From Rhizophagus irregularis (taxonomy: Eukaryota), in NCBI RefSeq assembly GCF_026210795.1, contig NC_089431.1, positions 4,154,001 to 4,218,000 on the forward strand: DNA of 64,000 nucleotides. Direction: 5' to 3'. Both the position numbers and the translations under genes were made by a program. Below, piece by piece: positions 5,789 to 62,067 of the stretch. Within the stretch, counting starts at the first letter, position 1, and every line of letters begins with the position of its first letter. The notes under the pieces were generated by a model that was not told the DNA's origin, made no database searches, and worked only from the letters and a program-made list of their open reading frames with translations.

Positions 5789-6182
5789 CAATCAATTTTT
5801 AAGATAAAAAATAAATCGGCTATTGAATATTAAATAAACACGTACGGTAATCATTAGTATCATCCGGACCCATGTCTTCTTCCGTCATTACATGAATCCG
5901 AGCTAATTTCACATCGGATCCAATGAAAATTAGTATAGCCGTCAATGACGTAACACAATATACACAATATGGCGCAACTTGAGATAACGTAACTAATCAA
6001 ATGTCTGCAGCCCTAAACTTAATTAATATTGGACTGGATTTTAATTTGGTCTTTGGCCGAAAAAAGTTTCATTGCAAGGTTCCATTTTATTATTATTTTA
6101 ATTTTTAAATTTGACATATTTAAAATTTTCATATAATCATGTAAAAATAGAATTTTCTATTGATTGAAAAAATTATTTGAAA

Positions 6183-9011: not shown

Positions 9012-9639
9012 AAAGCATAGATTAACTCCTGAGGACATGGTCTGAATGTATCCTTTTCTTTAATAGAGCAGAATTGTCCAGTTTCTGATTATTATTTTTT
9101 TATTTTATTTTGCCTATTATTCATTTGATACCTGGCTTATGATTGGGGCAGCATCCAGGAAATATTTAATTTTTAATGTTAAGGAATGTATTATTTATTA
9201 TTGTATTTCGAAGGATTAGGGGTTGGACACTTCAAATTTTGATTTTTGGAAGTGACAGAGTATGGCGAGTGTAGGGGCCATATTCAATAGTTTTGAATTA
9301 ATAAACACAAGTAATTTTGCAATGTATGAATTAAAATTATTTCAGTTTTCTAAGTGTATTTAAAATGTTCAATTATTTTTGAGTGATCAAAAAAAAAAAC
9401 TCATATATTGATTTGAATTATAAAGTTGAAATATACAATATAATTGAAGGTAAAGAAATTGCACAAATAAGTACCAATGTGTAATGAGCATCTATGACAT
9501 TAAAGGTATGAAGCTTAAATTTTTTTTTGTAAATCCTATTTAAAGTGATAATAACTAAATACAGTACATAATGTTATACCATCAAGACATTCAATTTATA
9601 CATTTGTTATAATGACTTCTGAATGAAAACAATACATTT

Positions 9640-10300
9640 ATTCTTTAGAAGACATGAAATTTTTCATATACAGCAGTATTATGGGAGGATCTCACAATAG
9701 AATTACGTGACTTTGATTGATCGATGGGAGCAGTAGTGTATTCTTGCAAGATTTGGCTTTATTCCGCTAAGCTGATGATTTTACGACCTAACCTCAGAAA
9801 ATTATTCGTTTTCATTCCCCACTCTTTCATCTTCTCCAAAATCCCGATTCCATGTTCTCTGCCCAATGTATTCAGAGCCTCTGATCTTGATGGCTTCCTA
9901 TTCCATATCGCTAGAAGTTGTTGTAGAAATCCCTTCCAGTTCCATTAGCTTGTCCTTTACCTCTTTTAGACCTTTGGGTGCATCGTTGGATGCTTTATAT
10001 CATACATACTTTATTTTTTCGTCCGCGTAATGACTTCAACGATGTCCTCTGGCGCAATGTTATCTCGTTTATGTTTTATAAAATGTATATTTGTACTTTA
10101 ACTCATATTATAACGAAATTATAAGAGCCTAACGATATTACTGAATACATTTGGTTATCCGCAATAGCAAAGTGTGCTAATGTTTTTCCTCTATCAACTT
10201 CATTTTTATTGATTTTAATTTAACAATCTTTTTGCCAGATTTCAATTTCCACTTCAAGTAAATATAATAATCTTTGTAATTACGTTTTAAATTTTTTATG
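9640..10300 (-). pseudogene. Degraded coding remnant, possibly ankyrin-repeat-like
   Basis: Minus-strand fragments VDRGKTLAHFAIADNQ and WKGFLQQLLAIW..; multiple stops and frameshifts. Confidence 0.3.
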
Positions 10301-11540
10301 AATTTTTTTTTAATAATGAAAATAATTTTCGGATAGACAATTATTATTATCTTTTTCTAGACATTACATGACTAGGATTCCATAAACATGGAGATTTTCT
10401 CGATTTGTCGGGTGATATTACTTATTACTATATTACATGTTGCCTTTTACTTATCTTATTTACCTTCTACTGCTGTTGTGCAGTGTTGCATACAGACATT
10501 CCTATCTAATTAAATATTAATAACTGACTGAAGTGTGTTTAACAAGCTTCGTTTAAAATTAAATTACGGTATTATGACAAACTGATCAATGAACGAATAT
10601 TTTTCAGCTAGTTTAGCATTATTTTATTATAAAACACATTCGGAAGCTATGATGAAACTCAAATTAAAAATTATAATATTAAAAATACAATAGCCTTTTT
10701 GCTAAATAAATTACGTTTATCAACTGAATAAAGTTGCCGATTTTTGTCGTATCCCACATAATTTTCTAATTTAATTTTCATTATAAAGCGAATATAAAAT
10801 TGGAAATAAAGATCATGCTTAAATTTGAAAAAAAAAATACATAATATTTTATAATAGAAAATCATGTTAAAAAAAAAATTATTATCGAAGCTTTACTTCA
10901 GTAATTTTACCTGAACGCATAAATTTCTCGGCTATCAGCGGGTCATTATAAAAAAATTAATTAACGGCTATATAGATAAGATTTATTTATTGTTTAATTT
11001 GTTTTAATTACATTTTTTTTTTCCGGAAATGTGATATTTATTTAAAACTTTTGACGAACAAACTGCGCGTTCTGTGTGCGTACTGCACGTTTTGAAGTGC
11101 TTGTAACAAGTAACATTTGATTTAATAATTAAATTGTACTACATCCGAATTTCATAGATTTATTTTATTCTTCGGCACGAAAGTTAATTAGTTTTATAGA
11201 TAAATATATGACTTTAATAGCAAATATATATATAAATTTATAGAAAGAAAAAGGTTTTTTTTTTCCATAATTTTTACTTAAAAATAAAAATTTAATAAGA
11301 AAACTTAAAATAATAACGAATATCCTGGCTATATTCTATGTAATATGGTGCCGCTTTGTTGCTAAGAAGTAGAAATTGGTCCAATTTTAATATAAAATAA
11401 ATTTAAAAATTATTACTTTTTTTTAATCCAATTACTTTATTTTATATAAAATCTAAAAATAATCGTGATCCGTACAAAATCCCGAAAGAATGGCATAATG
11501 CTGTGCGGTTCGGGATTTTCGGGAATGTAATAAATACACT

Positions 11541-11755
11541 GGATTCCTTAATGTACAGTGGGGGTGTACATTATTAATGTACGAACTGGCCGAAGTTAAC
11601 GTTAACGCTATCACGTGCAAGTGCATAACTCCTAAACTCGGGCCAGTTTGTACGTTAATATTGTACACCCTTTTTTACGCCTTGCCAACTTCACATAAAA
11701 TAAATAAAATAAAATAAATAATATTGTACACCCTCACTGTACGTTAAGGAACCTC
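11541..11755. mobile_element. MITE, Mutator-like
   Basis: Long TIR TTCCTTAAYGTACAGTGRGGGTGTACA. Flanked by the 11-bp direct repeat ATAAATACACT (11530-40, 11756-66). Confidence 0.75.
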
Positions 11756-11783
11756 ATAAATACACTACCATAGTACTACCATA

Positions 11784-12924
11784 GGACCCCGGATAATTAT
11801 AATAGAGGTCACATCCGCAGTACTAATTAAAAATCTAATGAAATATACATAAATTTTGCCGTTTTGATATACATTTTTATCATATGACCTTATTTTGTAC
11901 TACAAATATCCTTTTTTATCATATGACATCAATTTACTAAAAAATAGGTCAAAATTTTATTTTATATTAAAATTATACAGCATTATCATCAATTGACTCT
12001 GTAGAAATAATCAAGTGTAATTTATCTATAGCTGAATTAAAAAATTATAGATTATCATTTCTTTTTTTCCTACGATCAAAAATCCCATATTTTCAGTGAA
12101 ATTTTCGCAATTTCCCAAAAATTCATTAATTCTAAAATCATAGCTAGTCTAAATTGTAACGCTAAGGTTTAATAAACAACCCCCATTAGAAAAGACAGCT
12201 GCGGAAGTTAAATGTGAATATTGCAAATGAAGGATCTTTTCAGCAGTATTATCAATTCTGGCTAACGGTGAAAGAGTCTCATAAGGAGTATCAAAAGTAA
12301 TAGAAAAGATATCAGATATATTAATATTTGAAACATGAACAGAATGAATATTAGGAGGTAGAATTGTAGAAAGTATTAATGTTTAAAAGTTTCTCGAGAT
12401 ATTTCATTTTGTATTGATATATAATGACATTAAAGACAAAAATTAAAACACGAAAACGCGTGTCTTAAGTCTTAACATTTTAAAAATAATTAATGGTAAA
12501 TCATATTGAATCTCTGGTAAATTTATCTGACATGAAAAGCAAATAAATTTAATAAATTTAAATAATTATATTACATTGTGATAAAAAAATGAACTTTTTG
12601 AATATAAATTTATTACGTTATCATTATGATAAAATTATCTCAAGCAAAATTTGCTATTTATATTAAATTTGATGTAACACTACTGCATATTATATTCCCC
12701 ACTATATTCCCCCTAAAATATACGCTTTATTAGAAAAATTACATGTGACCTTAAAATTTTACAAAAATTATATACTTATTTTACTGTGACCTAATTCAGA
12801 AGTATTCTATTTTTGCATGTGACTTTTACTTAAAATACCCGCTTTTGCATATGACCTTTTCATTAAAAATACAATAAAATATACTTTTTTTGTATATGAC
12901 CTTTATTATAATTATCCGGGGTCC
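11784..12924. mobile_element. Non-autonomous Mutator-like element (1.14 kb)
   Basis: TIR GGACCCCGGATAATTATAATARAGGTCA. Perfect 10-bp TSD TACTACCATA (11774-83, 12925-34). Subterminal ATRTGACC repeats. Confidence 0.9.
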
Positions 12925-13243
12925 TACTACCATAGTACCATGTGGAAAAATTCAATCCACGTGATGCAGGCTACGCCACAGAGGCGCAGAAAATCAATCA
13001 TCTGCATTCGGTAAAAAAATGGCTCATTTTTAGAATATTGCTATCTCGGAATTAATTTTTCTGCTAACCTTCTTTTGGTTAAAGTAGTTCCTATACAGTA
13101 TATATACAGTGTATAACTTATTTTATATAACTATAATCATGTGATCTAAGTTATCGAATCATTTATTTCAATTAATCGTTGTTTATAATCTGAATCAACG
13201 TGGCTATAAATCTATAATAATTTATAAAATAAATTGTCAGATA

Positions 13244-13416
13244 CAGTCAAACCTTTATATAACGATATGTCGGGACATATATGAAATTTTTAGAAAATAT
13301 CGTTATATCGATATTTATATGTCCTCACATATAGTGGGAAAATAAAATTTTATCGGTATAACAAGTTTTTAATAATATATCGGTATATCGAATATCGGTA
13401 TATCGAGGTTAGACTG
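13244..13416. mobile_element. Tc1/pogo-type MITE, copy 2
   Basis: CAGTC..GACTG termini with TA TSD; reverse-complement copy of 3394-3577. Confidence 0.9.
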
Positions 13417-31259: not shown

Positions 31260-32795
31260 ATGATAATGGATTTAAAGGATTATGAGTTTTTGCCTCAATT
31301 ATCTCAAAATTTACTTGAAAGTTTGGACGAAGACGAATATTATGATATAACTATTGAAGTTGGTAAAGATCCCTACGTAAAAATTTTTCGTGCTCATATG
31401 GTTATTTTAAATCGTCGTTCTCCTTATTTGCGAAGAATTTTATCAACTAATAAAAAGTACAATGATGGAAACTTGGTACATATTAAATTACCAAATATTT
31501 TACCAGAAATTTTTCATATAATTTTAAGGTGAAAGGAGAATTAAAACTATAAAATAATTTAATTAATATTTTACAATATTTTTTTTTTAATATTAAGTAA
31601 AAAACTTTTTTTTCTTTTTTTTTATTTTAGGTATATTTATGGGGGGAGGCTTTCTTTAAAGGAATATGATACTGCAGATATCATCAAAATCTTGGTGGCG
31701 GCTGTTCAACTTAACCTTAAGGAATTAATAATCTATTTACAATCATTTTTAATTAAAAACAAATCCGATTGGATGGAGAAAAATTTTAACCTTATATATA
31801 GGACGAGTTTTGAAAATGAATCTCTCTTGGAACTTCAAAATTACTGTAATAAACTTATTTCAAAGGAACCAGAAAGGATGTTTGAATCACAAAATTTTTC
31901 TTCAATTCCAGAAAAAGTTTTGGTCTCGCTTATTCAAAATGAAAATCTTCGAATGAGTGAAATTGAAATTTGGGAACATGTTCTTAATTGGGGACTTGCA
32001 CAAAATCCGGAACTTCCATCTGATCCTGCAAATTTTTCGAAGGATGATTTTAGTTTATTGAAAAATACCTTAAAATCGTATATTCCTTTTATTAGATTTT
32101 ACGATTTAACCTGTAAGGAATTTTCGAAAAAAGTATTACCTTATAAGAAAATTTTACCAAAGGAATTATATAAGGATTTATTGGATACATTTTTAGATTT
32201 ACATCCTGATAGTAAACCTGATAAATCAAACCCTCGTAATTCTAATAGTTCAAAACATATTGATTCTAAAGTTATTACATCACAACATGCTGAATTAATA
32301 TCGAAATGGATTGATAGATTAGAAATTACGGATAAACTGACTTCTTCATATGGATTCAAATTAATTCTTCGTGGATCTCGTGATGGGTTTACGTCTCGTA
32401 AATTTCACGAGGTGTGTGATGATCAAACTAATATTGTAGTAATTGTTAAAGTGAAGCAAAGTAATGAAATTCTTGGAGGGTATAATCCAGCCACGTGGAA
32501 ATCTGGTTACCGTTTTAGCACTACTAGAAATAGTTTCATATTCTCCTTTAAGAATAATGATGGTATTGAAAATTTTATTTTAAGTCGTGTAATGGATGAA
32601 GAGTATGCCATACTTAATAACCCTACCTGCGGTCCTTCGTTTGGTAATGGTGACCTTATTTTGTCAGGCGAAGAGAGTTCTTCTGGTTATTGTGAAAGTT
32701 ATTGTGAAAAAAGTTCTTATGAGAGGCTTATTAGGGAAACCGAAAGTGAATTTTCTGTAGAAGAATATGAAATATTTCAAATTGTAAAATACTAA
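31260..32795 (+). CDS. BTB/POZ-BACK-TLDc domain protein, intact
   Basis: Exon 1 31260-31528, intron 31529-31630, exon 2 31631-32795. Motifs LRGSRDGF, FHEVCD, GGYNP, GPSFG, EEYEIF. Confidence 0.92.
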
Positions 32796-32941
32796 GTATC
32801 GGTATTAACAGTTAAAAAATTTATTTAATTTACTTAATTTACTCTTATTATTTGTAGTATAATTATATTTTATTTTATTAAATTTTTTTTCTTTTTTTTT
32901 TAAAACAATAAAAAAATATGTAAAAAAATTTTTAAGAATTA

Positions 32942-33406
32942 TTGCCGTTTTCAGAAATGTTGACAATCTGAAATTTTGACCATTTTATACCGAACACACC
33001 GAACACACCGAACACACCGTGAACACATACAAAAAATTATGCAAACTTGAAGTATTCATGCATAACTTTATATAAAAACTATTTTTGTCACTTTTTAGAT
33101 ATGAATAAAATTGAAAATATGAAAATTTGTACCGAACACACACCGAACACAAACGAACACACCAAACACACCGAACATTGGCAAATACAAGCAAATACAA
33201 GTGAATACATATATGCAAATAATATAATTTTTATACATTTTTTTATGCACACTACCTAAAAATATATTACTAAAGTTTTAATTTTGCTTTTTTTAAAGGA
33301 AAATTTGTTTTTTTTTAATTTTAATTGCTGTGTTCGGTGTGTGTTCGGTGTGTTCGATTTATAGAAATGATCGACATTCTAATGTCAACATTTCTGAAAA
33401 CGGCAA
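32942..33406. mobile_element. MITE with CCGAACACA subterminal repeats
   Basis: About 25-bp perfect TIR TTGCCGTTTTCAGAAATGTTGACA, TA flanks, tandem CCGAACACA motifs. Confidence 0.85.
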
Positions 33407-34460: not shown

Positions 34461-36736
34461 ATGGCAAATTTAGATGAAAATAATCAAGGTGAAAGTATGG
34501 AATTATTAGGCGTGATTTATGGTATAGGAATGAACGTTAATAATATAATAGGAGTTGGTTTGTATATTTATATTTACTGATTTTAAAAAAGGAATATCAA
34601 TACTAGATTTAAAAAAATGATTTTAAAATATATATGCAGGCATTTTTACAACTCCCGGAATTGTTTGGAAACAGGTAAAAACGCCTCATGTCGTTATATT
34701 ATTATGGCTAGCCGGTGGGATTGTAAGTCTATTTGGTTCCCTTATTTATACCGAGGTAAACAACATTGTCTATATATAAATGAATTTTTTTTTAAAAAAA
34801 AAATTATGTCGATTTAACTGTTCTCTGGTTTAAAAAAAAAAAGTATGGAGCCCTACATAGAGATAATGGTGGAGAAAAAATTTATTTGGAAAAAGCATAT
34901 CCATCACCACCATTAATGGCAAGCTACCTTTTTAGCTTCATGTTCATATTGTGAGTATAATAATTATTTTCGTAAAAAAAATTTATAAACTCTCCATATA
35001 ATTAATTTATCATGGTATTATTTAGCGTGATTCGACCCGTGATTATATGCGCAGTATTACAGTCTGCTGCGCAATATACATGGTATATGTTTGTTGGAAC
35101 CTCTCCATTGGATGGAGATGACAAAATAGATCCACTCTTAAATGGTTGGCAAAACAAATTTAAACCTTACTGGTATTTATTTTAAATTTATATACAATCT
35201 GTAAATTCTTTTTATTTTCATTATTTAAAATCCTTAAATAATTTCTCTTATTCATAGGATATTGAAATTGATAGCAATTTTTTTTTTGTTATTAATAACA
35301 GGATATCATTTGTTAAATAGAAAATTGGCAAATAAGATAAATCATGGTCTTGCAATAACTAAAATGATCGTGATATTGGTAATTGCATTGGGTGGAATAT
35401 CAAAGTATCATAATAACGAAAATTGGAAGAAACCTTTAGATGATAATTCGATCAATACAGCCGTTAATTCTTATCCTATTGCAATTATTCAAATTTTATT
35501 TAGTTATAACGGATGGAACACTCTAAATTATTCTTTAGATGAATTTAGAAATCCTGAAGTAAAATTAAAACTTAGCAATATTTCTAGTATTGTAATTGTA
35601 ACGATATTATGTAAGTTTTTTTTTAAAAGTATTTTTTTTTTGAACAAAACGTTGTATCTTTTATCTAATCACTTACTTTTATCAGATTTATTGGCAAATG
35701 TTGCATTTATTACTGCTTTACCATCTGATGTTATAACAAAAACCGAACATTTTAATGAGACAATTACAGCAGATTTCTTTAAAAGTATTTTTTTTGACAG
35801 TAATGTTGCTGCAAGGGTATTATCACTTTTTGTTGTTCTTTCTGCTGTTGGTACTGCTGCAACAAGTGTTTGGAGGTATTTAGTGTAAATTTTTCATTTT
35901 TAAAAATTTTTTTTTTTTAAAAAAAAAACATATTAAAAAATTTTTTTTTGATTAGTGGATCAAGAGTTATTGTGTCAGCGGCGAAATCAAATTTTTTTCC
36001 AATCTTTTCACCACAATTAGTAAAGTGGAGAGAAAGGGAGATAAATCAGCAAGGGCAAAGAGGGGAAAATATGCGATATACTGAATATACGCCAGTTAAC
36101 GCGTTATTAGCGCAACTTGTATGGTGTATATTCATTATATTAATCGTTGGTGGATCAATACAAGTTGATAGTTTCGTGCTATTCACTTCAATAGCAACTT
36201 TTTCTGTCTGGATATTTTACATTGTTACAAGCTTGGGTTTAGTTGTAAGCATAATTCAAATTCATTTTTTTTTTTATTATTTAACATTTATTGTTATTTT
36301 TTATTCATTTTTTTTTTAAAAAAAAAATTTTTAGAAAACACGAAAAAGATATCCTGGTAACCCTCCATTCAAAGTACCACGTTCAATAATTCATTTGTTT
36401 ATAGTTTCGGGATTTCTATTTATTGCATTATCATTTGTCCCTGATAAAGAATCAATACATCCGTATATAGTTCAAATATCATTTATCTTGGTTAGTTGTA
36501 TATTTTTATTTATTGGATTTATTTGTTATTTCGGATTATTTCGACAGCAACAGCAACCGATACAACCGCAACAGATACAACTACAACCGATACAACCGCA
36601 ACAGATACAACCGCAACAGATACAACAGCAACAGATACAACCGCAACAGATACAACCGCAACAGATACAACCGCAACAGACACAGCAACAACAGATACAA
36701 CAGCAACAGATACAACAGCAACAGACACAACAATAA
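34461..36736 (+). CDS. APC-superfamily amino acid permease (LAT/Mup1-like), about 8 exons
   Basis: GMNVNNIIGVG/IFTTPG, GGEKIYLEKAY, LFSYNGWNTLNYSLDE, SGSRVI, TPVNAL, PFKVP; many TM segments; GT-AG introns. Confidence 0.9.
36545..36733 (+). repeat. 15-bp coding tandem repeat encoding (QPQQI)n
   Basis: About 12 copies of CAACCGCAACAGATA immediately before the permease stop codon. Confidence 0.95.
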
Positions 36737-45510: not shown

Positions 45511-46443
45511 TTTTCTTTTTATTTCTGAATTGTTTATATACTAAATTCTATAACTAGGAAACGGGAACCGTTGTAAGTCCAGAACGAAAAACTAAAATTT
45601 GCCGATTTCATTGGGTGACGATCACATGGCGGACAGAGAAACTCACGTGATCGATTTTTTTTCATAGTGCGTAGACATATATTGTCCTTCGCTTCGCTCT
45701 GGACAATAAAGTTGTTGACCTTTTGTAGTTGTTTAGATACCTAATTTTATGTTGAGATGCTGACTTCTTGCACCTAATTGGGTGCTGGATTCTATATTGG
45801 AGTACTTACTCTTTGTGAGCATAGCAGACATGCTCATATCACCTTACTGATTATTTACTGATTACTAGATTCTGCAAAATATCTGATTCGATTTGAATCC
45901 GTGAATTAGATCTGAATCAGATCTGGATCAAATCATTAATTTATAATCCATAAATCTGATTAGACCAAAAAATAATGATCCGATTTGAATTGGATTAGAT
46001 CTGAATCAGATCTGAATCACATTTTGAATCATTTGAATCAAGCAATAATAGCTATCCGAAAATTTTTTTTAATCCAAGAAAAATGTTTTATTTAACAATT
46101 TAACAGAAATAACATTTTTTCTTTAGAACTCTTAAAAAAACCAATTTTTTTTTAAAAAAAATCTCACTAACTCTTTAAAAAAGAGTTTCTGTAAAAAATG
46201 AGAAGGAACGTCACGAGTCTAATGATAACAAATTGGCAACCAATCAGATGCTAATAGCCTTTCTTATTGGACTCTGACCATTTTTATGAATGCCAATTGT
46301 GGTCAATTAATGGCGCAAATCAAGATAAAATCGGAATGCAATATTGGCATTAAATGGGAGAACTAATTTATATATATCAGAATTTACCAATAATATTAAA
46401 TTGTTAAAATCAATTGCATTTAATAAGTAAATTTATATAAATA

Positions 46444-48119
46444 TAGTGCTCCGAAAAAAATCTGATCTGATCTGGGATCCGCAGATTTGATCCAAGTCAG
46501 ATCAGTTTGGTTTTCAAAATTTTGATCCGTAAATCAGATCAGATTTAAAAAAAATCTGATCTGATCAAATTCAGATCAGATCAGATCAAACACAAGAAAA
46601 TCTGATCTGATCTGAACAGATTTCGGATCAGATTTTTTTTTTAAATTAAAATTTTTTTTAAAAAAAAAATTCATTTTTTTAAAAACCCTTTCCTGGACAA
46701 ATGGACGCCAGACGACCAAGATTTAAAAGAACGAACTAGGTAAGTTCATTTCTTTTTTTTTATTATTTTTACTTGAGGGAACTTAATTAACGGTTTTCTT
46801 CTTTTTTATTAGGAAGCCTAGATGAACGAAGCCTAACGACCAGGATTTAAAAAAAAAGAACGAACCTATGGTGAGTTCGTTCTTTTTTTTAAGGTTTTTT
46901 TTTATTTTTTATTTAAGGGAACGTAATTAACGTTTTCTTTCTTTTTTTTAGGAAACCTGGACGTAAACAAAGTCGTTAACGACCAGGATTTAAAAAAAGA
47001 ATGAACTATGGTAAGTTCGTTTCTTTTTTTAAGTTTTTTTTTTTAATTTACTTAAGGAAACATAATTAACGTTCTCTTTCTTTTTTTTTAGGAAACCTGG
47101 ATGTGGACGAAGCCATTAATGACTAGGATTTAAAAAAAGAATGAACTATGGTAAGTTCATTTCTTTTTTTAAGTTTTTTTTTTATTTTTACTTAAGAGAA
47201 CGTAATTAACGTTCCCTTTCTTTTTTTTTTAGGAAACCTGGACGAACGAAGTCGTTAAGATGTTAACAACCAGGATTTAAAAAAAAGAACGAACTATGGT
47301 AAGTTCGTTTCTTTTTTTAAGTTTTTTTTTAATTTACTTAAGGGAACGTAATTAACGTTCCCTTTCTTTTTTTTTTAGAAAACCTGGACGTGGACGAAGT
47401 CGTTAATGACTAGGATTTAAAAAAAGAATGAACTATGGTAAGTTCATTTCTTTTTTTAAGTTTTTTTTTTAATTTACTTAAGGGAACGTAATTAACGTTC
47501 CCTTTTTTTTTTAGGAAACCTGGACGTGAATGAAGCCATTAATGACCAGGATTTAAAAAAAGAACGAACTATGGTAAGTTCATTTCTTTTTAAGTTTTTT
47601 TTTTATTTTTACTTAAGGAAACGTAATTAACGTTCCCTTTCTTTTTTTAGGAAACCTGGACGAACGAAGTCGTTAAGACGTTAACGACCAGGATTTAAAA
47701 AAAAGAACGAACTATAGTAAGTTCGTTTCTTTTTTTTAGGTTTTTTTTTTATTTTTACTTAAGGGAACGTAATTAACGTTCCCTTTCTTTTATTTTTAGG
47801 AAACCTGGACACGAGACAAAGCTAAACGACCAGGATTTAAAAGAACGAACTATGGTAAGTTCATTTTTTTATTTTTATTTTTATTTTTTTTACTTTAAGA
47901 AACGTAATTAACGTTTCCTTTCCTTTTTTTAGTACAAGGACCAGATCTGAACCAGATTCGGATCAGATTCAAATCGGATTCAAATGGATCCGAACCAGAT
48001 TCGGATCAAATTGAACTAGATCTGATCAGATTCGGATCAGATCAGATCTATTAAAATAAAAATCAAATTAGATCAGATTTAAGTTAAATCCAGTCTGAAC
48101 CGATCTGTTAAGAGCACTA
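46444..48119. mobile_element. Non-autonomous hAT element nested in the larger hAT
   Basis: TAGTGCTC..GAGCACTA termini, perfect 8-bp TSD TATAAATA (46436-43, 48120-27), dense TCAGATC subterminal repeats at both ends. Confidence 0.92.
46700..47935 (+). repeat. Tandem array of ~140-bp intron + micro-exon units (9 introns)
   Basis: GTRAGT donors at 46740, 46871, 47011, 47151, 47299, 47438, 47574, 47717 and 47855. Each is followed by TAATTAAC, poly-T and TAG. Confidence 0.9.
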
Positions 48120-48221
48120 TATAAATATATTGCTCAAATTTATTTACATTATAAAAACAATTAAAATACTAATTTAATATATTAAATGTCCTATAATATA
48201 TAATACATAAAGTATTACTCT

Positions 48222-49095
48222 CGAAACTTATTATCTAATCCAAGAGAACCTACAAAAAGAAGTAAAATAAAACGTTAATAATGTTTCTTAAAAAAAATTA
48301 AAGTTTCAAAATTTCAAAGTTGAAACTTATCGATCAAAAGCCCAAAAGAAACTGATATCTAAAAAAAAAATAAAATTAAGCCAATTTAATTTTACCAATC
48401 CAAAAGGCAGTATTAAAGCCGATACCTAAAAAAAGAAATAAAAAAATGTTAGAAAAAGTTATTTTTTTAAAAAAAACAAAGTTTCAAAAAAACAAAAATT
48501 TTGAAATTTACCCGATCTAAGTGAAGAGTCTCACCGATACCTAAAAAAAGAATAAAAAAAAAATATTAGAAAAAAGTTTTTTAAAGTTTTGAAAGAACAA
48601 GAACGAAACTTTAAAACTTAGAAACTTATCCAATCCAAGTGAAGGGTCTCGCCGATACCTAAAAAAGAAATGAAAAAAAATATTAGAAAAAAAATTTTTA
48701 GTTTCGAAAGAACAAGAACGAAACTTTTGAAACTTACTAATCCAAAGTGAAGGGTCTTGCTGATACCTAAAAAAAGAAATAAAAAAACATTAGAAAAAGT
48801 TTTTTTTTTAAAAAAAATAAAGTTTCAAAAAAATGAAAATTTCGAAACTTACCGATCCAAAAAAAGATTCAAAAGAAGAACGAAACTTACCTATTCAAAA
48901 GAAAGGTTGAAGCCGATACATCATACATACCTAAGAAAAAAAGAAAAAAAATTAAATTTATTATTTTAAAAAAAACAAATAAGTTTCAAAGTAAAACCTT
49001 CAAAACTTACTGAATCTAAACTAAAAAATGTTTCAAAATAAATGAAATGAACGAAACTTATCAATTCAATTCAAAGAAAGCCGATATCTAAAATG
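48222..49095 (-). repeat. Tandem array of ~110-120-bp intron + micro-exon units
   Basis: On the minus strand, repeated GTAAGTTTC..CTAAT..poly-T TAG|GTATCGGC..TTGGAT units. Confidence 0.75.
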
Positions 49096-49625
49096 GAAGT
49101 GTTTTTTTAAAAAAGGAAAAAAAGTAACTTTTAAAAGCTCAAAAAGATTATCTTTAGACACAAACCATAATTGACTAGGCTGATCTGCCAATTGATTTAT
49201 TTTGCTGATTTTGCCATTAGTCAAAAATTTTGACAATTCTTTTTTTTAAAAATTCATTAAAAGATGGGTATGTTTAATTGTTTTAAAAAAAAAATTGTGC
49301 ACTTATCCCTTTTTTTATAAATTCATTTAAAAAGGGGCAGATTTTTAGATGTTAGAAAAAAAAATTTTTATTTCATTAATTTCATTATAAAGGATGTCCC
49401 TTTTTCTTTTTTAAAAATTCATTAGAGAGTGAAGTAATTATATTTAAGAAAATTTTTTTTTTTTACTAGCACTTTTCCCTTTTTTATAAATTCATTTAAA
49501 TGGGCCAATTTTTATATAGAAAAAAAATTTTATTTCATTATAAAAGAATGAATTTTTTAAAAATGTTAAAAAAGAAATTTTTTTTTATCACTGATTTACC
49601 CTCTTTATAACATTATTAATACACT

Positions 49626-51860
49626 ATGGAAGTCGGTGATGATGATAATGGTAATGAACAAGATTTTGAAAATGAAGTTTTACTGACAGTGGAAAGTTTT
49701 AAAGGTAGTATTGTCTAGATCTATTTTACAAAAGATCCTGATTTTAAAGAAAATAAGAAGGCCACCTGCAAACATTGTTCTAAAGTTTATGTGTATTTTG
49801 GGGGCAACACATCAAATTTAAAGAAACATTTAAAAAAACATAATATACAAATGAATTAAAATCATGGACAAGACATTAGAGAAATGTTTAGCTCTTCTAA
49901 GGTATATGTCTTTACTTTATTTCTTGTAAAGTTTTTCAAATTTGAATTTCCATTATTAATAATAGTTATTAATTAGTGGGTTTATAATAATGATACAATG
50001 AGAGGAAAACTTGTCCAATAGGTTATAATGAATTAACAACCCTTTAGCGTTGTTGAAGAACTAAGTTTTATTGAGTTTATGCATTCATTCCATCCCAGTG
50101 CCTTGGTATCCTTAGTAGACACGATCAAGAGAAACATTTACAATCTTTACAAAGTAAATGTTAAAAAGATTAAAGATATTTTGCAAATGGTGCCAGAAAA
50201 GATATTATTTACAACCGATATCTGGACTTCCCTCTCAACCAAATCTTTCCTGTCCTTAACTGCCCATTTCATTGATAAAGAATGAAAGTTATGAAGTGTG
50301 ATAGTTGACTTTATACAAATGTATAGATCTCACACTGGCAAAAATATTAAAAATACATTCATATTAGGATTAGAAAATTTGTCAATTGAAGATAAGGTAA
50401 TTACTTATTCTTAAATTTATTCTTAAATTTAAGTTAGAATAAATATATTTAATTTGTTTATAAATTTTATAGCTATTTGGAATTACTCTTGATAATGCCT
50501 CAAATAATCAAGTATTTATTAATGAATTAAGTAAATGGGCAGATCAAAATCATATCATTTTTAACAGTGAAAACTACTTTAGATGCTTTGTGCATACAAT
50601 TAATATAGGTGTACAAGAATTTTTAAAATATTTAGATCAAGAACTAGGTTTAAGTCAGGTTAGAATTTTTTTATTTTACTTAATTTTGGTTTATTAATTA
50701 ATAATTTAATTTATTCATTTATAGCTCAGGCAACTTCTTAATAAAATTTGTGCATCTACTCAACGGTGTGAAAAATTAAGCCTTGCATGTAAGAATAATA
50801 GTATTGATGATTTAAAACCTATAATAGATGTGCCAACAAGGTGGAATTTGATGTGTGAAATGATTTCAAGAGCTTTATTAATAAAACCTGTAAGCTTTTT
50901 TACGTACTATATTTACTGTAATTTTGTATTATTACTTATTACTTTTCAAATTAATTATTTATTGGGCTCTTGATATTACTGCAATATCTGATCATGATCT
51001 CAAAAGCTATACACTTACAGAAGAACAATGGAATGGACTTAGAAAAATAGTGGATTTTCTTGAACTATTTAAAGAAGTAACAGCAGTAATTTCAGGAAGT
51101 ACATATTCAACACTTTTTATGATGATTCTATTATTCAATTTTTTAATTAATCATGTAGAAGATATTATTGGAGATGAGAATGAAAAAGTTAATGATGAAA
51201 ATGATGATGAAAATGATGATGAGAATATACGAATTGAAAAATCAATAAAAAAAGCTGCTAAATATTGCAAAGATAAATTATTGAAATACTATGTCAAGAC
51301 AAATAACGTGTATTCAATAGCAGTTATCTTAGATCTGAGATTAAAAATACAATATTTTAAAGATGAAGAGTGGGATGATGATTTAATAAATGAAATTAAT
51401 CAAAAGTATGTACTTTTAAAGTTTTTGATATATTTATTTAATAATTATATTAATCATTAATTTTTTATTTAGTTTTGTGAATATTTTTAATTCTAATTAT
51501 GCCACTACCTCCTTAAATTCCAACATTTCCTTCACCTCAAAAGAAAAATCAGTAATATCACGTGTATTTAAACGTCACTATGGAAAATGTAGATAAATTT
51601 AAAACATATATTGCTTTACCAACTGTTTCTGGTAAAACTTTGGATCCTCTCAAATGGTCGCGAATTAATGAAACTCAATATCTACAACTTAGTAAGATGG
51701 CCCATGATTATTTAGCTATACCTGCTACAAGTGTACCATCAGAGCAGTGTTTTTCAATTTCAAAAAATTTAATTACAAACAATAGAAACTGTTTAATAGG
51801 AAAAACAATAAGAATAAGTATATATTTGAAATCCTAGAATTATTTATTGAATAATGAATA
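49626..51860 (+). pseudogene. hAT transposase pseudogene (zf-BED, DDE, dimerisation domain)
   Basis: ATCKHC..TSNLKKHL, FTTDIWTS, DNASNN, RCFVHTIN, DVPTRWN, PATSVPSEQCFS; introns; several premature stops. Confidence 0.92.
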
Positions 51861-53331
51861 AATAATTATTTATTTTTAAAATTATATTATTTTTTTTATT
51901 TTATTTTATTTTTTTCTTAGTATTATAAATATAAGTATCATGTCAATAAAGTAACTAATCTAATATCTATCTATATAACTAAAAAAGATTAAGTGAAATA
52001 TAATTAATGACTATAGAGAGGTTGGCTAAATACACTTTTTTGAATAATAGTGTAGTTAGCCGAAATATTCACAGATAACTGTAACATTTTGAATTGCTGT
52101 TTCGTATTCTTTATAAGACCCGCTTGATCAACAAATCATGTTGTACATATTGTATATCTAATAGAATTTTTTTTTTTTTTTTTTTTTGATTATTAAATTA
52201 CCGATTTATTTTTTTTTCAAATATTTATTTTTTTCATCATTTTTTTTTTAAACCTATTTTTAAATTTTTTTCCTTTTCTTTACCATTCTTTTTTTTCTTT
52301 TCCTCTTTCTTTTTGATTTGGTTTTTTTTTCACCAAGAATTTTTTTGGTTTTTTTTCATTCTTTTCCCGTTTATTTTTCCAAACTAAAATTTTTTTTTTT
52401 TATAAATAATTCTATTGTTTTAGTCTTTTAAGACCGATTTTTTTTATACTATTTTTTTTTCGGTCTTTATTTTTAGACCATATTATTAAAAATTTTTTTT
52501 CAGTCTTTTTGAACCTTATTTTTCAGAATTTTTTTTGGTACCTATTTTTTTTATGAATTCCTTTTTTTTCAAAAATTTCCTTTTTTTAAACCAATTTCTT
52601 TTTTTATCCTTTTTTTTCCCCTAATTTTATTTTTGTTTTTTTTTCAAATTTTCTTTATTGTTATTTTTTTGGGGTTTTTTTCGAATTTTTTAAAACCTTT
52701 TTTTTGAGTTGGTTTTTTTTCCAATTTGAAAATTCTTTTTTCACTTTTCTTTTTTTGGATTAGCTTTTAACTTTTTTTCCAATCTGAAAAATTTTTCTTT
52801 TTTTGGTTTGGCTTTTTTTTTGTTTTTTCCTGAACCATATTTTAAACCATTTAGATTTGGATCAGTGATCAGATTGATGCTGCAGCACCACAGTAATTCT
52901 TCTTAATAAGAATATTTTCTCTAATTATTTTTTAGGTTCAATAATAGACTGACATATAATTTACTTATTTATTTATTTTTTGTAATAATAGATCTGACAA
53001 TAGATCGGAATAATTAATTTTCTAAAAAATTTTTTTTTTCATAACAATAGATTGTTATAATTGATTTTTGGAGGATTTTTTTTTACTTTAATTTTAAAAT
53101 ATATTATTAATACTTTAAAACTAAAATGTTTGCCATGAACCCTTTTTTTAATTAAAAATATAAAATTGAATCAGATTCAAATTGGATTTAGATTAGATTC
53201 AGATTAGATTCAGATTAGATTCAGATTAGATTTAATTTGATTTGGATCAAATCCAATTTTTTTAAAATAAATCAGATTGGATCAAATCTTACTATCTAAA
53301 TCTGATCTGATCTGATCTGTGCGGAACCCTA

Positions 53332-54728
53332 CTAGTACCTGAATATTTCATAGCGTTACTGAGTTTCTTGAAGTATTTGAGGTTTCCTTGCGGGATGGTA
53401 CCACATCTAAAAACACTGTGCGCCTATCATCATTCTCCATTCTGAAAACATTTTCATTAGTTAGGACGATGGTAGACATAAAGTTCTTGTACTATATTGG
53501 TGTCTTGTGTTTTCATGGATTTCCATTATGCCACCTATTACCTTATCCTTCAAAGAGCGATACAGATTATTTCACTGGTTTTTTTCTGTGGGTATTTCCT
53601 CGAGAAGGAGAAGGACCTTGCCTTGTAACTGCGCATTGAAACTACTAAGAATCGTCTGAGGATCGCTGGTCTTATAAATGAGTTGAGTGTCTAGGATACT
53701 GCGTTAGATGAAATCTGTTATAATACTCTTATCCCAATCCTGTCCTGATTTCAGGTAAAGAATTGAGTACATCTTCCTTTCAGCAGATATACTGGCCAAC
53801 CATTTGATGATATATTTGGTGAGATTCCAATCACCTGAACACCAGATATCCTGAATATGGGAGAAGATAAACTTAACTGCAAGATGGATCTTAGATTCAA
53901 AGGTGGATATTGGACGCAAGATGTGGAGAAATCCTGGAAAGATATTCAAATAGAGTTGGCCTGTTGAGGATCTGAAGATTCGCTGTTTATGAGGATCACA
54001 GATTGCAATTAAGGTTGCCTGCCTAAACCTCTCCAAAATTTTACGATTAGCTTTTCCAAGATTTTACTATAGTTTTATTATAGTTTTGGCAAGGTTTTGG
54101 CAGTTTCGGCATTTATAATAAGTTTTGTCAGGTTTTGCTTTTTTCCAGAATTTCGCCAACTTTTTAATAAGACTTTCATATAGTTTTGGCAAAGTTTCGC
54201 TATTTCAGCATTTCGCCAACTTGCCAAAACCTTCTAGTTTCTCCAGCAACCTTAGTTGCAATACATACATCGGTATTCTCATACATAAACCACTTGTAGA
54301 TGTTGAATTCAGTCTTTTAAGAGGGACTTTGTTCAGGTTGTATGTAGAATGCCTTAGTGATTGGATGGATAAGTTTACCAATATTTTTGTCAATAATATG
54401 TTTCAAACTTTTACTATCTGGGTCCTACCAGAAAACCCCATGAGGATCTGCATAGGAAATAAAATAACTGTAAAGATACCTCTTGACTTGATTGAGATCA
54501 CTCATACTCTTTGCAGCGATAATAAGCCATTTAAGCTCATTGATACTGAAGGCTTTCTTTTATTCGTCCAAACTTGAAAATAACTTGAACTTGAGTAGTT
54601 ATTTTTTGTTCTATCAAATCGAGATCTAATTTGTAGTTACTTAATCTTCAATTGCTGAATATTTTTCCAAAGATCTGCACTCCTACCTGGCTATTTCTCT
54701 GCGGCTCAACAGACTTTCTAGGGACCAT
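53332..54728 (-). pseudogene. D5-like (SF3) helicase-primase remnant
   Basis: LYLNIFPGFLH..DIWCSGD..IKWLA..ILYLKSGQDWDKSIITDFI (decayed Walker A), LLLEE (Walker B), VLTNEN..ENDDRRTVFLDV. Truncated by the hAT end and split by a MITE. Confidence 0.8.
54010..54254. mobile_element. hAT-type MITE inserted in the helicase gene
   Basis: TAAGGTTGC..GCAACCTTA termini; 8-bp flanks ATTGCAAT / GTTGCAAT. Removing it rejoins DVCIA to CDPHKQRIF. Confidence 0.85.
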
Positions 54729-57158: not shown

Positions 57159-58265
57159 CAAATTTACTACACAATTTTTTTTTAATAATTTAACTATTAA
57201 CAATTTTTGTCTATATATAACCTAAATCGGCCTTCTAAACCTTCTTTTTAAGCTTAATAAAAGTTGTAAAGTGAGGTGAAATACATAATATATATAAAAT
57301 TCAAACTTTTAAAATATATAAATGAAAAACACTATATGATTAACTCTGTAAAATTTTATAAATTTTGCCAATTTTTACAAATGTAAAAATTCATCTATAA
57401 GATATCTATTCCAAAAAATGATTTATATGAAAAAATAATGTTTTTAATATAAATTTTATAATGTTTTCTATGTAAAAATAAAAAAAAAATCTAGGTTAAT
57501 TTATACATGAAGTCAAAATTAAAGCCTAAAAGTAGAAATATTTCGACTTGGGAAGGTCAAAAGTTGAAATTAAAGTTGAAATGATCGAAATTACATCATA
57601 GTCATGTGATTTTTATAATTATAATTTAATATAAAATTTTAAATGTAAATAATTCTGTCAATATTGATGTTACAAATATGAAATATATATCATTGGAATC
57701 CTCTCGATGAGCTGAATCCAACCGCATAAAGGTCATAAAAATCGAATCACTGGATGTGGAGTTCGTTAACTTTGAATTTTAATATTATTGTTTACTATAA
57801 AATCATATGACTATAACGTAATTTTGACCATTTCAACTTTGGAGAGGCTCAAGTTGAAATCATTTCGACCATTTCGACCATTTTGGAGGTCAAAATTAAC
57901 CAATTTCGGTTTCATGTATAGGTTAATTATTGCAATGTCACATATATAATAATTAAACAATGTTAAAATTGCATACAAATTTACACACAATTTTTTTTTA
58001 ATAATTTAACTATTAGCAACTTTTTGTCTATATGTAAAGCTTAAATTGGCCTTTTAAACCTTTTTTTCAAGATTAATAAAAGTTGTAGAGTAAAGTGAAA
58101 TATATAATATATATAAATTCAGACTTTAGAATATATAGATGAGAAACACAATGTGATTAACTCTGTAAAATTTCATAAATTTTGCCAATTTTTATAAATG
58201 TAAAAATTCATCTATAAGATAACTATTCCAAAAAATGATTTATATGAAAAAATAATGTTTTTTAA
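57159..58265 (+). repeat. ~290-bp direct repeat pair (57159-57447, 57976-58265)
   Basis: Two clearly alignable copies separated by a MITE-containing spacer. Confidence 0.85.
57502..57920. mobile_element. MITE with 8-bp TSD (hAT-like)
   Basis: TATACATGAA..TTCATGTATA termini; perfect TSD GGTTAATT (57494-501, 57921-28). Confidence 0.85.
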
Positions 58266-60431
58266 AAAAACCTATCTTTGATCGTAAAATTGAGAGAAAT
58301 AAAAAGAATATAGTGAAAGAAATAGAGTGAAAGAAAAAAATAAAAGAAATAGAGCAAAGAGTTAAAACAAAAGAAATGGAGTAATAATGAAATGGCAAAC
58401 ATAAAGAAAAGGATAAAAGAAAGTTAGTAAAAATAAAACATAGAGAACAAAAGAAACCAAAATTGGAAAATGAAAAAATACCTTAATTGCGAAACTGGAC
58501 CAGATAGATTTCCAGAGTTGTTTAGCTATTCTTAAAAACTTTAATAATATTCTCAAATTAAAAAAAACTAAAAATAAATGAAAAAAAATGAAATGATACC
58601 TTGCAACATTAAAATCCAAGAGAATGTTCAAAGCAGCAAAGCCACTTCTAAAAAAAAATAAAAAAAAATTGCATTATACGTTGATATTACAATTGTTATG
58701 CATGGTGAATTTTACCATTTTAACAAAAAATTTAAATATTTAAATATTATGGTAAAATTCACCATTTGGTAAATTTATTATCTGGTAAATTTAACCACCA
58801 GTTATTGTTAAATTAATTCTAAATATTAATTAAAATATTGCAAAAAATATGTTTTTTTACTTTTTTTTTTGTAAGTTATAATAATATTATTTGGATTTTA
58901 ACTTAAATTTATTAAATAATTTTACTTAAGCAATAAAAATAATTTTTTAATTAAAGTAAAAAAATTATGCTTTAAAAATTTCTATATATTTTAATAATAA
59001 AAAATATAATAATATTTTTATAAATGCATTTAAATTATCAGAAATTTAAGGTAAAATTCATAATTTTAACTATATTATTCAAAGTTTTAATAGTAATTGT
59101 CCAGAGTGTAGTGAAGAACTATATAATTTTATGAAGGTCAATGACAATTAGTATTACATGGCGATTTCTGGTTGTTTGTACACGTCATTTCTGATTGGTC
59201 TGCATAGAATATGTATTGAAATTTCATGTTACATCAAAAATTAACAAGTTATGATTACCTTTTTTTTTTAGATTTTGGCTAGTAAGTATATTTTTCTTTT
59301 AAATAACTTTCTTATTGTTTTCTTGGGGTTTCTGGATTTCTTATACATATCAGACTAAAGCTCTGAATGGGTCGGTTCAGTTCAGTTTTAGTAAGGAACC
59401 AGAACCGGCCTGACATTCAGTTCCAGTTTTGGTTCAGTTCTTTGGATTTAAGCCCGACCTGAAACTAGAACCGAATTTTTAACCTGAATCGAACTGAAAT
59501 TATGGTTCGGTTCTTAATTAGATAATCAAAAGATTATCGATTTTTTTTTGTAAAAAAAAAAATATTCATCCGCTTCTTTAAAGTGCATTTCTTCACGAAG
59601 AATTTTTTTTTTAGTTTATTGTTTTTTTTCGTTCCTTTTTGCGTTCCGTTTTGCTAAATTCGTACATTTCTTTTCTTTTAGGTCTCAGTTCTTGCAACTC
59701 TTCACGGAAAGAAGGTGTTACTTTTTTTTGGTTTTTTTTGGTTTCCGTTTCTAATTTCGTACACCTCTCTTCTTTCTTCGTTTAGATTTTCCGTTCCTTG
59801 AGGTTTTCCTTGCGAAAGGTTCCAGTTCCTTGGAAAGGCAAGTTTTTTTTTCTTTTTTTTTGGATCCCTTTTCTAATTTTGTACGCCTCTCCTCTTTCTT
59901 CATTTAGGTTTTCCGTTCCTTGCGGTTCTTCTTACGAGGGCTTCGGTGGCAAGTATTTCTTTTCTTTTTATTTCTTTTTTTTTTAGATTCCTTTTCTAAT
60001 TTCGTACGCCTCTCCTATTTTTTCATTTAGATTTCCATTCCTTGCAGTTCTCCTTGCGAAGGGTTTCAGTTTCTCATTGCATTTCACAGAAATGTAAGTG
60101 TATTTTTTCTTTTTTTCTTTTTTCTTTTTTTTTGGGGTTTCTTTTTCTAATTTCGTACGCATCTCCTCTTTTTTTGTTTAGGTTTCCATTCATCATGTAA
60201 AGGCTGGTGTGTATTTTTGTATTTCATTATTTCAGTTTTTTTTTTTTTGTTTCTGTTATCCTTTGTTAATTTTATCCTTCCTCTCTTTTTTTTTAGGATT
60301 TCAGTTCCTTACGATTCCATTGGAAGGTAAATAGTTAGAGTATTTCTATCGCGTCTCTTTTTTTGTTTCTTTCATTCTTCTTTACTAATTCCATCTTTCT
60401 CTAAGTTTTCAATTCTTGCGGTTCTTCGTAG

Positions 60432-60540
60432 AAGTCTATCAAATGGAGCTGTTGCAGTACGACTTACCGCACCAGTTATCATACCAGCGAGAAGATATTT
60501 TAGATCAGTTGGTGGTATTATTACTTCACCATCCATATTA
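60432..60540 (-). other. Captured fragment of a Ca-binding mitochondrial ATP-Mg/Pi carrier (SAL1/SLC25A24-like)
   Basis: NMDGEVIIPPTDLKYLLAGMITGAVSRTATAPFDRL matches carrier helix 1 and the start of the Px(D/E)xxK signature. No other carrier sequence nearby. Confidence 0.8.
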
Positions 60541-60620
60541 TCACCTGTATTATCGCCTGTATTATCGCCTGTATTATCATCTGTATTGTCACCTGTATTA
60601 TCACCTGTATTGTCACCTGG
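60537..60620. repeat. 12-bp tandem repeat (TATTATCRCCTG)n
   Basis: About 7 copies; reads (GDNT)n on the minus strand. Confidence 0.9.
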
Positions 60621-62067
60621 GCTATGACTTTGTAGTATTCGAAATTTCTGGACCGCAGACATGGTTTGATTTGGTCTACAACACCAAAGGCGGCTTTTCT
60701 TTAGTTTTATTTCAAGGATCTTTAGTTCCTTTCACCAATTCTTATAGATTTTCATTCTTTGCAGGTAAGATATTTTTCTTTCTTTTTTTTTTTTTGTTTA
60801 TTCATTATCCTTTGCTAATTTCGTCCTTCTCTTCCTTCAGGCTTTTGCTTCTTTTGCGGCTCTTCATGAGAAGGTGGGTATTTATGATATAATTTTTTTG
60901 TCTTCTTCTTTATCCTTTGCTAATTTCGTCCTTCTTTTCTTTTCCTTTAGGTTCTTTGCGATTCTTTGAGGATACAGGTGTTTATTTTTTTTATTTTCTG
61001 TATTTTTTGTTTTCTTAAATTTAGGATTTTGATTCTTTGTACTCTTCAGAGAATGTATGTTTATCATTTTTTTCTTTTTTCGTATTCTTTTTTTGTTCTC
61101 TTGCTAATTTCGTCATTCTCTTTTTTTTTCTTTTTTAGATCTTGATTTTTTTGCACTTTAAAAGAAGCAATGAATTAATTTAACAAAGGAAATAAAGGAA
61201 ATATACGAAATGAAACAAAAAATAAAAAAAATTGAACCACCTACTTTTCTGTAATCTTCATTTCTAATGATCTTTATGGATTCACGGGTAAGGTAGTTTC
61301 TTTTTAATTTTCTTTAATTTATTATTTATTTATTTTTTTCTCTGTCCGCCATATCACTAATATTAACAATTACTTTATAATATTTTTTTAATTCCCTATC
61401 AAAAAACTGTCATGTCACATGTTCATGCGCCAATATAAATGAACTACCCAATATTATTTTTAACGTCCAAATTCTTTTTTTTGATATATAAATGGCAAAA
61501 AAATTAGCATAAAAGTGGCCATTAACTATATTAACTATGTTGCTGAAGCATAGGACTGTGCAACTGAAATTTTGCCTAGCATATTTTTAATTTTTTTTTT
61601 ATTTTATAGTTTTTTTTTAATTAAAATTAGAAATAGCTGTGCGTGTGACATGTAAGGATCGTATTCTTTATCTTCTTATATAAAACATTCAATTATACAA
61701 AATGTACGAAAATTAATTTCTAACAATAAAAAAAATTTTTTTTTGATTGATATTGCCGATTTTGATTGATGTTGCCAAAACATTGCGCCAATCAATTTTT
61801 TTTGCCAAAACATTGCACCAATCAATTTTTTTGATTGATATTGCCGATTATTCTGATTGATTATTACCGATTAAATATTGTGATTGATATTGTCATATTG
61901 CCGATTGATATTGCCCAATTTTTTTAGTAAATATTTCTATTTAAATGGTGTATAATATATATTTAAAAAAAAGATTTTGAGAAAAAAAAAAAGAAAAATT
62001 ATTTTTACATTAAATAATAAAATTTCTTTGATCCATCTTTCACCCCTCTTCTTTTCAAATACTTCAG

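Follow-up and report, generated by a model that had tools for sequence, protein, structure and literature searches.

Maize Ds is a non-autonomous hAT derivative with short terminal inverted repeats (TIRs), an 8-bp target-site duplication (TSD) and subterminal repeat clusters; it has lost its transposase, and one of its ends provides splice donors through which splicing removes it from host RNA. Passages of PMC9659126 describe non-autonomous DNA transposons and MITEs which carry internal tandem repeats, namely miDNA4 and Xstir of Xenopus and Pearl/CvA. Multiplied structured introns are described in part of PMC8469720 as fungal introner-like elements and symmetrical sister (stw)introns, and part of PMC2572040 presents Turmoil-1 of C. 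elegans as a case of transduplication. Splicing is tied to silencing in both directions (parts of PMC5554785 and PMC6232588): in C. elegans, introns hold back nuclear RNAi (PMC5554785), whereas poorly spliced transposon introns of Cryptococcus draw silencing rather than avert it (PMC6232588). Rhizophagus irregularis possesses RNAi and has mCG on its transposable elements, with many hAT copies lowly methylated (part of PMC8647823).

We analysed one stretch of R. irregularis DNA (the window; 64,000 nucleotides, GC 22-31%), in which BTB/TLDc and kinase genes are abundant. At 46444-48119 it contains a hAT-type element whose interior holds nine exon-intron units (array A). We favour, tentatively, the reading that this is a gene-less R. 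irregularis hAT with an amplified non-coding exon-intron module, which is transcribed, rarely spliced and kept for spliceosome loading, a form of gene mimicry. Its features are as follows.

46436..46443, no strand: left copy of the TSD, TATAAATA, 8 bp, a perfect match to the right copy
46444..48119, plus strand: non-autonomous hAT-type element, 1676 bp, with TIR and TSD and without transposase
46444..46451, plus strand: left TIR, TAGTGCTC, 8 bp, a perfect inverted pair with the right TIR
46452..46640, no strand: left subterminal arm, dense in GATC/GATCAGAT repeats, almost without RNA reads
46641..46739, plus strand: presumed first exon, start unmapped, masked in the read alignment
46740..46812, plus strand: intron 1, 73 nt, degenerate hairpins
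46813..46870, plus strand: exon 2, 58 nt
46871..46951, plus strand: intron 2, 81 nt, GTGAGT donor, retained in most aligned reads
46952..47010, plus strand: exon 3, 59 nt
47011..47091, plus strand: intron 3, 81 nt, donor read through in ~95-100% of aligned reads
47092..47150, plus strand: exon 4, 59 nt
47151..47232, plus strand: intron 4, 82 nt
47233..47298, plus strand: exon 5, 66-nt type
47299..47378, plus strand: intron 5, 80 nt, two perfect hairpins
47379..47437, plus strand: exon 6, 59 nt
47438..47514, plus strand: intron 6, 77 nt, two perfect hairpins
47515..47573, plus strand: exon 7, 59 nt
47574..47650, plus strand: intron 7, 77 nt
47651..47716, plus strand: exon 8, 66-nt type
47717..47799, plus strand: intron 8, 83 nt, two perfect hairpins
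47800..47854, plus strand: exon 9, 55 nt
47855..47932, plus strand: intron 9, 78 nt
47933..48111, plus strand: right subterminal arm and presumed last exon, with GATC repeats and AATAAA at 48055 (candidate poly(A) signal)
48112..48119, plus strand: right TIR, GAGCACTA, 8 bp
48120..48127, no strand: right copy of the TSD, TATAAATA

The TAG-ended pair of TIRs with its TSD is the only one in the window. An earlier note made from the sequence had described nine units of about 140 bp, each running from TAG through an exon and GTAAGT to TAG, inside a non-autonomous hAT with a perfect TSD, and this description holds, with a period of 140 and exact TIR and TSD. The element shows the features of a hAT: a short TIR, an 8-bp TSD, subterminal clusters shared with a transposase-bearing hAT, multiple copies and an absent transposase; there is no ORF of 90 aa within it. 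GATC words number 15 in 257 nt at the left end and 11 in 187 nt at the right, against a window background of 3.5 per kb, and the left-arm GATC/GATCAGAT repeats are likely binding sites of the transposase. The right end is 72% identical over 152 nt (E 3.6e-13) to 53170-53320, the end of a decayed hAT that encloses the element. Like ends of the two align better (scores of 78 for left with left and 100 for right with right) than crossed ends (73 and 59), and array A therefore probably lies in the sense of the lost transposase. The autonomous parent was not found in transposase scans of non-fungal collections, in which 0 of 12 and 0 of 93 candidate stretches were confirmed. Further candidates for a TIR with an 8-bp duplication, some of them nested, lie at 3546-13275, 11783-12925, 31755-33312 and 57502-57920 of the window.

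The element is present in multiple copies. In the single contig run aligned (X15), whose kind is not on record and which is probably DNA, the arm had a depth of ~13,000 and the units one of ~64,000, against 114 and 152 on two versions of the flank, summed depths which are no copy number; the arm stands at 49-98 times the flank as a rough figure, and the family has, very roughly, 50-100 ends and 240-480 units per genome. The two versions of the flank (46303-46442) carry 0 and 6 differences and both stop at the insertion point; they represent either a pair of alleles or paralogues of the enclosing element. Scans with the unit pattern, in collections which hardly contain R. irregularis, returned one locus among metagenome contigs (L001) and none in viral or prokaryote genomes. 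L001 carries a near-identical unit at high identity after another subterminal arm. This contig has, within its positions 1-505, one unit behind a different hAT-like arm with ATCTG-NN-CAG repeats, and it breaks exactly at the exon 3' end into an antisense helicase-like remnant with a TGxGKS motif, which we take to be RecQ-like; being a single contig, it may be chimeric.

Tandem repeat analysis of array A gave nine units with a period of 140, 8.8 copies and 82% matches. The units are 71-92% alike, and the 92% shared by units 5 and 8 reveals a three-unit higher-order repeat. All nine introns (73-83 nt) have GT(A/G)AGT donors, TAG acceptors and TAATTAAC placed 19-23 nt ahead of the acceptor AG, with the first donor 296 nt inside the left end of the element and the last acceptor 187 nt inside the right end. 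Every one of them thus displays the anatomy of a U2 intron, with a GT donor, a YTRAY branch 15-35 nt before YAG and a host-like length; the coding introns of the window measure 40-102 nt with a median of 72 (from 11 of 12 approximate anchors, some of whose borders may be imprecise). Scanning the two strands of the window for introns under strict criteria returned 35 candidates, 18 of which fall in three clusters, and these clusters are the window's three tandem arrays with a period above 100 bp (arrays A, B and C). Under a fixed intron rule both array-A test units pass, as do 0.5% and 1.0% of their 2000 dinucleotide shuffles each and 1 of 459 background pieces of the window. A tandem repeat of a different kind, 12 copies of a 15-bp repeat at 36548-36731, gives an amino-acid-permease-like gene a QPIQQ-type glutamine tail.

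The exons do not appear to code for protein, as the earlier note had expected. Six of the eight internal exons (58, 59, 59, 66, 59, 59, 66 and 55 nt) are not multiples of three, and the fully spliced product has 16-17 stops per frame and a longest ATG frame of 38 codons. We rejected an origin of the exons from a coding repeat on account of these phases and stops. The notion that the units are mirtron-like precursors of hairpin small RNAs, or that the exons are a decayed repeat protein, is already largely refuted and is scarcely credible: the intron size would suit mirtrons and the 59-nt exon has one mostly open frame, but that frame shifts at each junction, the 44-aa frame holding exon 7 has no relative in protein searches (a weak test), none of 22 Rfam matches reached its gathering score, and the long stem pairs exon with intron across their border rather than joining the two ends of the intron. 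The last point also speaks against the earlier suggestion that the introns could release mirtron-like hairpins.

All 36 GT/AG letters of array A are intact, for which P is ~0.09 at the array's own non-CpG rate with units that are not independent, and so selection on the splice sites is not demonstrated. Changes are about three times as frequent at CpG (28 of 126 cells) as at other cells (63 of 968) and are mostly C>T and G>A; this CpG-biased decay suggests that array A was formerly methylated, not protected.

RNA was sampled from two poly(A) raw-read runs labelled R. irregularis (X21 and X22, from two samples in a single study; roughly a quarter of each run was used), aligned at 88% likeness to 46300-47100, the left 801 nt, of which 268 nt were masked. 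The alignments recovered 132 and 230 reads of 11 million; most are 90-99% alike and consequently derive from paralogues, that is, from family copies rather than assignably from 46444-48119. A third run (X24) gave one read and was uninformative. Depth is 62-123 on the units and 0 and 0.75 on the left arm, where DNA carry-over would have produced 13.6 and 23.3, and the signal is therefore not DNA carry-over. The family copies are thus transcribed, and at least four reads (two in each run) join a predicted donor and acceptor to the base, which bears out the earlier proposal of a transposon-borne non-coding RNA that can be spliced at exactly the sites it named. The joined reads are of two sequence types, the next exon being of the 66-nt type in one run and of the exon-6 type in the other, and their number is a lower bound, given the 268 masked letters and the difficulty of aligning short, divergent exons.

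The same note had presented the RNA as multiply spliced, and this does not describe its main form. The 3' part of intron 2 is as deep as exon 3 in the aligned reads, and the implied depth just past donor 3, the sole measurable donor, is 64 against 67 in one run and 125 against 125 in the other. Since depth does not change across this donor, the aligned reads are almost all unspliced (~95-100% read-through), although short divergent exons bias the alignment against spliced reads. The search for spliced junctions which the note had called for accordingly gave a mixed outcome: exact junction reads exist, whereas no GT..AG joint in 46300-47100 reaches a threshold of three reads in X21 or X22. The exon-exon joined form is absent among the joint rows listed for the contig run X15; in family copies the joined reads represent exact removal in RNA as a minority form, and an intron-less DNA copy is a less probable source of them. 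Nine X22 reads pass from an intron 3' end into right-arm sequence. First mates fall about equally on both strands, and part of the array RNA may therefore be antisense or read-through; the library may be unstranded.

The units were also said to hold hairpins that place the 5' splice site and the branch point in loops. Against 60 shuffles per unit, the folds of units 1-9 have z scores of -0.41, -5.71, -2.54, -3.85, -7.85, -6.40, -3.43, -5.57 and -2.02, so that the folding check bears out the hairpins in eight of the nine units (z -2 to -7.9), while unit 1 is no more structured than its shuffles. Their presence "in each unit" was overstated: the 8-bp core of the donor stem is fully Watson-Crick in four of nine units and the 10-bp branch stem in three. 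In the predicted ensemble, donor positions -3..+3 are open as claimed, but +4..+6 sit in the stem in units 3-9. Likewise the AATTA loop is predicted to be open in six of nine units, in which the would-be branch A of TTAAC is itself paired and closes the stem. A third helix, CCAGG/CCTGG, which the earlier account had missed, is predicted to pair the acceptor AG in eight of nine units.

An alignment of the nine units with L001 (ten rows) shows pairing in 92.9% of 297 cells. Its covariation, 0.081, does not exceed that of shuffles (0.082; 250 of 500 shuffles are as high), a comparison of low power with ten closely related rows; in these rows two-sided changes occur at 3 of 31 stem pairs against 2.6 in shuffles. 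Units 4 and 6 appear to replace C-G by U-A, but we rejected this as covariation: the change lies on a CpG pair, and five of ten rows lack pairing there, unit 2 because it is misaligned. Stem-restoring letters are the family majority (T>C at 46935/6 in more than 90% of X15 contig depth), which fits young amplification as well as selection. The check that the note proposed for genome-wide copies, run here within array A (with L001 for covariation), thus demonstrates no excess of stem covariation or of splice-letter conservation, and the claim that the structure tunes spliceosome engagement is not sustained, with covariation as in shuffles and the neighbouring hAT arrays unstructured.

Two other explanations turn on these hairpins. 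In the first, spliceosomes would stall on strong splice words held in hairpins, and siRNAs against the family would be made as a result, either as self-limitation or as exploitation by the host. Near-consensus donors in introns that are mostly retained would suit such a trigger, as would the predicted pairing of donor +4..+6, branch A and acceptor; CpG decay is compatible with methylation, and R. irregularis has expanded AGO and RdRP families, with 49% of its small-RNA loci matching transposable elements (part of PMC8647823). However, arrays B and C lack hairpins and no covariation rises above shuffles, and we judge this trigger quite improbable. The second takes the inverted GAACG, CCWGG and AACGTT half-sites as palindromic sites in DNA for the transposase or a host factor, with the intron look inherited or incidental. 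By folding, the stems are almost equally stable on the opposite strand, and GAACG is present in both hairpins. Such sites are nonetheless very improbable in view of the exact spliced junctions in reads, of typical hAT subterminal repeats, which here are a different motif confined to the arms, and of the unstructured arrays B and C, which retain the intron words only.

Arrays B and C lie in two other hAT elements, within 15 kb of 46444-48119.

45865..53333, plus strand: enclosing decayed hAT, ends approximate, its own TSD 4 of 8 alike
48250..49010, minus strand: array B, about seven intron-like units within the enclosing hAT, unit of ~118 bp, exons of 28-29 nt
~49626-51837, plus strand: transposase gene of the enclosing hAT, Pfam Dimer_Tnp_hAT, E 5.8e-16
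59583..61138, plus strand: array C, ten intron-like segments of 69-99 nt with a CTAAT-type branch

The piece of transposase encoded at 51020-51457 resembles R. irregularis proteins with 98%, 95% and 91% identity (the best three of five matches). Array B sits between the left arm and this transposase and points away from it (divergent); its introns are 79-89 nt where well placed, with a CTAAT/CTAAC branch, and decay has turned two donors into AT. The last intron of array B is 79.6% identical over 54 nt to an array-A intron, a weak relation. Array C, with branch sites of the CTAATTTCGT type and donors GT or GC (two of them GC), has a presumed hAT left end (~59360) on one side and, on the other, a second hAT transposase with its start near 62065. 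This BED-type transposase runs off the window and is ~30% like a homologue of the enclosing hAT's transposase. In blastn comparisons at E 0.01, array C matches neither A nor B. It is split by an unrelated 460-nt stretch that contains a 12-bp repeat (60300-60760). Just past the right end of the enclosing hAT (53340-54060, minus strand), decayed frames resemble by eye a primase/helicase-type NTPase of large DNA elements; they have no Pfam match at 0.01.

Test units of arrays B and C satisfy the fixed intron rule, as 0.1-1.05% of their shuffles do, so that six of six test units from the three arrays pass. Their folds show no structure (z -0.05 to -1.57 against shuffles). Intron-likeness thus recurs and the hairpins do not: the hairpins are a property of one family, while the intron anatomy and its position recur across arrays. 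All three long-period arrays of the window (>100 bp) are intron arrays in hAT arms, in both orientations, and arrays of this kind are likely a recurring feature of these hATs. Since array C has no blastn match to A or B and its transposase is only ~30% like the neighbour's homologue, this recurrence, which includes a sequence-unrelated array, points to design or a strong bias.

The recurrence also bears on a neutral explanation, in which a hAT arm started out with a single ordinary non-coding intron, the array is a passenger satellite and its RNA is functionless leaky transcription. Any tandem duplication of 110-150 bp across an intron would yield exon-plus-intron units, with hairpins aiding slippage and template switching restoring them. 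Tandem repeats arising within non-autonomous DNA transposons are well known (in part of PMC9659126). This explanation is consistent with the covariation of array A, which is not above shuffles, with the tolerated mismatches and CpG-driven decay, with a higher-order repeat typical of unequal exchange, and with the few reads recovered (132 and 230 of 11 million). It does not predict that three of three long-period arrays are intron arrays in a like position in hATs, one of them sequence-unrelated and both orientations represented, nor that the RNA is restricted to the array and begins behind the arm. We regard it as unlikely but a serious contender.

The position of arrays B and C suggests a further role, as a 5' leader of the transposase (sense, as in C) or a divergent upstream transcript (as in B) that damps transposase output. 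Both lie between a left end and a transposase and have in common a TGAT..TGCC motif that comes after them, 150-450 nt ahead of the coding start, array A is sense relative to the element ends, and eight of its nine units end in or beside an upstream ATG. Against a leader or regulator speak the antisense orientation of array B, the AATAAA-rich sequence after array C, ~900 nt before the transposase, and, for array A, the autonomous parent missing from non-fungal collections and the absence of any aligned read that links array and transposase; we consider the role improbable. The motif, TGAT(1-2)TGCC, occurs shortly upstream of both hAT transposase genes (49181-49215 and 61748-61915), which account for 5 of its 12 matches in the window, and is a candidate shared promoter element.

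Returning to gene mimicry, we are confident of its first four steps taken jointly, namely the element with its nine-unit array, its derivation by deletion, growth at the DNA level, and family transcription with rare splicing. The element as it stands has its TIR, TSD, nine units and three-unit higher-order repeat. An internal deletion would have removed promoter and transposase and kept left arm, array and right arm, on the model of the two neighbouring hATs, in which this layout appears intact. The array would have grown as DNA, enlarged by tandem duplication and by unequal exchange, and transposition would have spread it. For the family, rather than for 46444-48119, poly(A) RNA covers the units and a few molecules are exactly spliced. 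The family-specific hairpins are predicted to bury donor +4..+6, branch A and acceptor and so to cut splicing; they would not be the selected feature. The proposed benefit is that spliceosome loading in cis would keep the arm beside the transposase promoter transcribed and less silenced.

Several observations stand against the gene-mimicry reading: the CpG decay, the Cryptococcus precedent and the low splicing rate, since splicing so rare among the aligned reads means that spliceosome engagement may be slight. The undemonstrated selection on the splice letters of array A and the AT and GC donors of arrays B and C weigh in the same direction. The argument from recurrence is further limited in that it draws on a single window with no more than three arrays, two of which are distant relatives. 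A broader proposal, which we hold to be rather unlikely, is that repeated, independent evolution in the hAT transposons of arbuscular mycorrhizal fungi has placed non-coding, tandemly amplified exon-intron arrays beside transposase promoters, where splicing would set how visible the elements are to RNAi and methylation; mimicry of introns would then be a transposon counter-defence, and hairpins over splice sites one family's dial.

Genome defence reads splicing as a signal of self or non-self, which protects in some systems and incriminates in others. A transposon class that mass-produces non-coding introns in its arms, from several unrelated sequences, would offer a natural test of the direction of this signal. 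About a quarter of the R. irregularis genome is unclassified repeat and 41% of its small-RNA loci are unannotated (part of PMC8647823). Arrays of this kind, should they prove neutral, would still readily give rise to false multi-exon gene models and supply new introns when elements land in genes.

No description of hAT exon-intron arrays was listed in the literature searches; a consensus of the family may exist in supplements, among them curated AM-fungal TE libraries. The main text of the R. irregularis TE paper (PMC8647823) contains neither "splic" nor "intron", and passages of PMC10234402, PMC11952901 and PMC5751038 do not describe such arrays.

Element 46444-48119 resembles maize Ds in its short TIR, 8-bp TSD, subterminal clusters and lack of transposase. 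It differs in its nine internal arrayed introns, the splicing of which would leave element exons. With introner-like elements and (stw)introns, as described in part of PMC8469720, array A shares many near-identical, structured spliceosomal introns within one fungal genome; those are dispersed singly in host genes, without flanking duplications, and the stems of sister introns join the intron ends, whereas array A runs head-to-tail with its own exons inside a transposon and its stems straddle the splice sites. An introner-like identity was rejected, the units being tandem inside a TIR element and not single dispersed insertions in host genes. The stalled-spliceosome RNAi of Cryptococcus (parts of PMC6232588) likewise concerns poorly spliced transposon introns in an RNAi-competent fungus, but there the introns lie within coding transcripts of the transposon, while array A is non-coding and its link to siRNA hypothetical. 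Like Turmoil-1 (part of PMC2572040), the element is a DNA transposon with gene-like pieces in its arms; unlike Turmoil-1, no host protein-coding source was found for its exons (in a weak search with 44 aa), and the exon lengths keep no frame. A further likeness is to miDNA4, Xstir and Pearl/CvA as described in passages of PMC9659126, gene-less TIR elements with a homogenised tandem array inside which spreads with the element. In array A, by contrast, the monomer is a complete spliceosomal exon plus intron that is transcribed and now and then spliced, and unrelated hAT arms repeat the design. The known kind to which the element belongs is thus the non-autonomous hAT carrying tandem repeats, and what is new is that the monomer is a working non-coding intron and that the design recurs.
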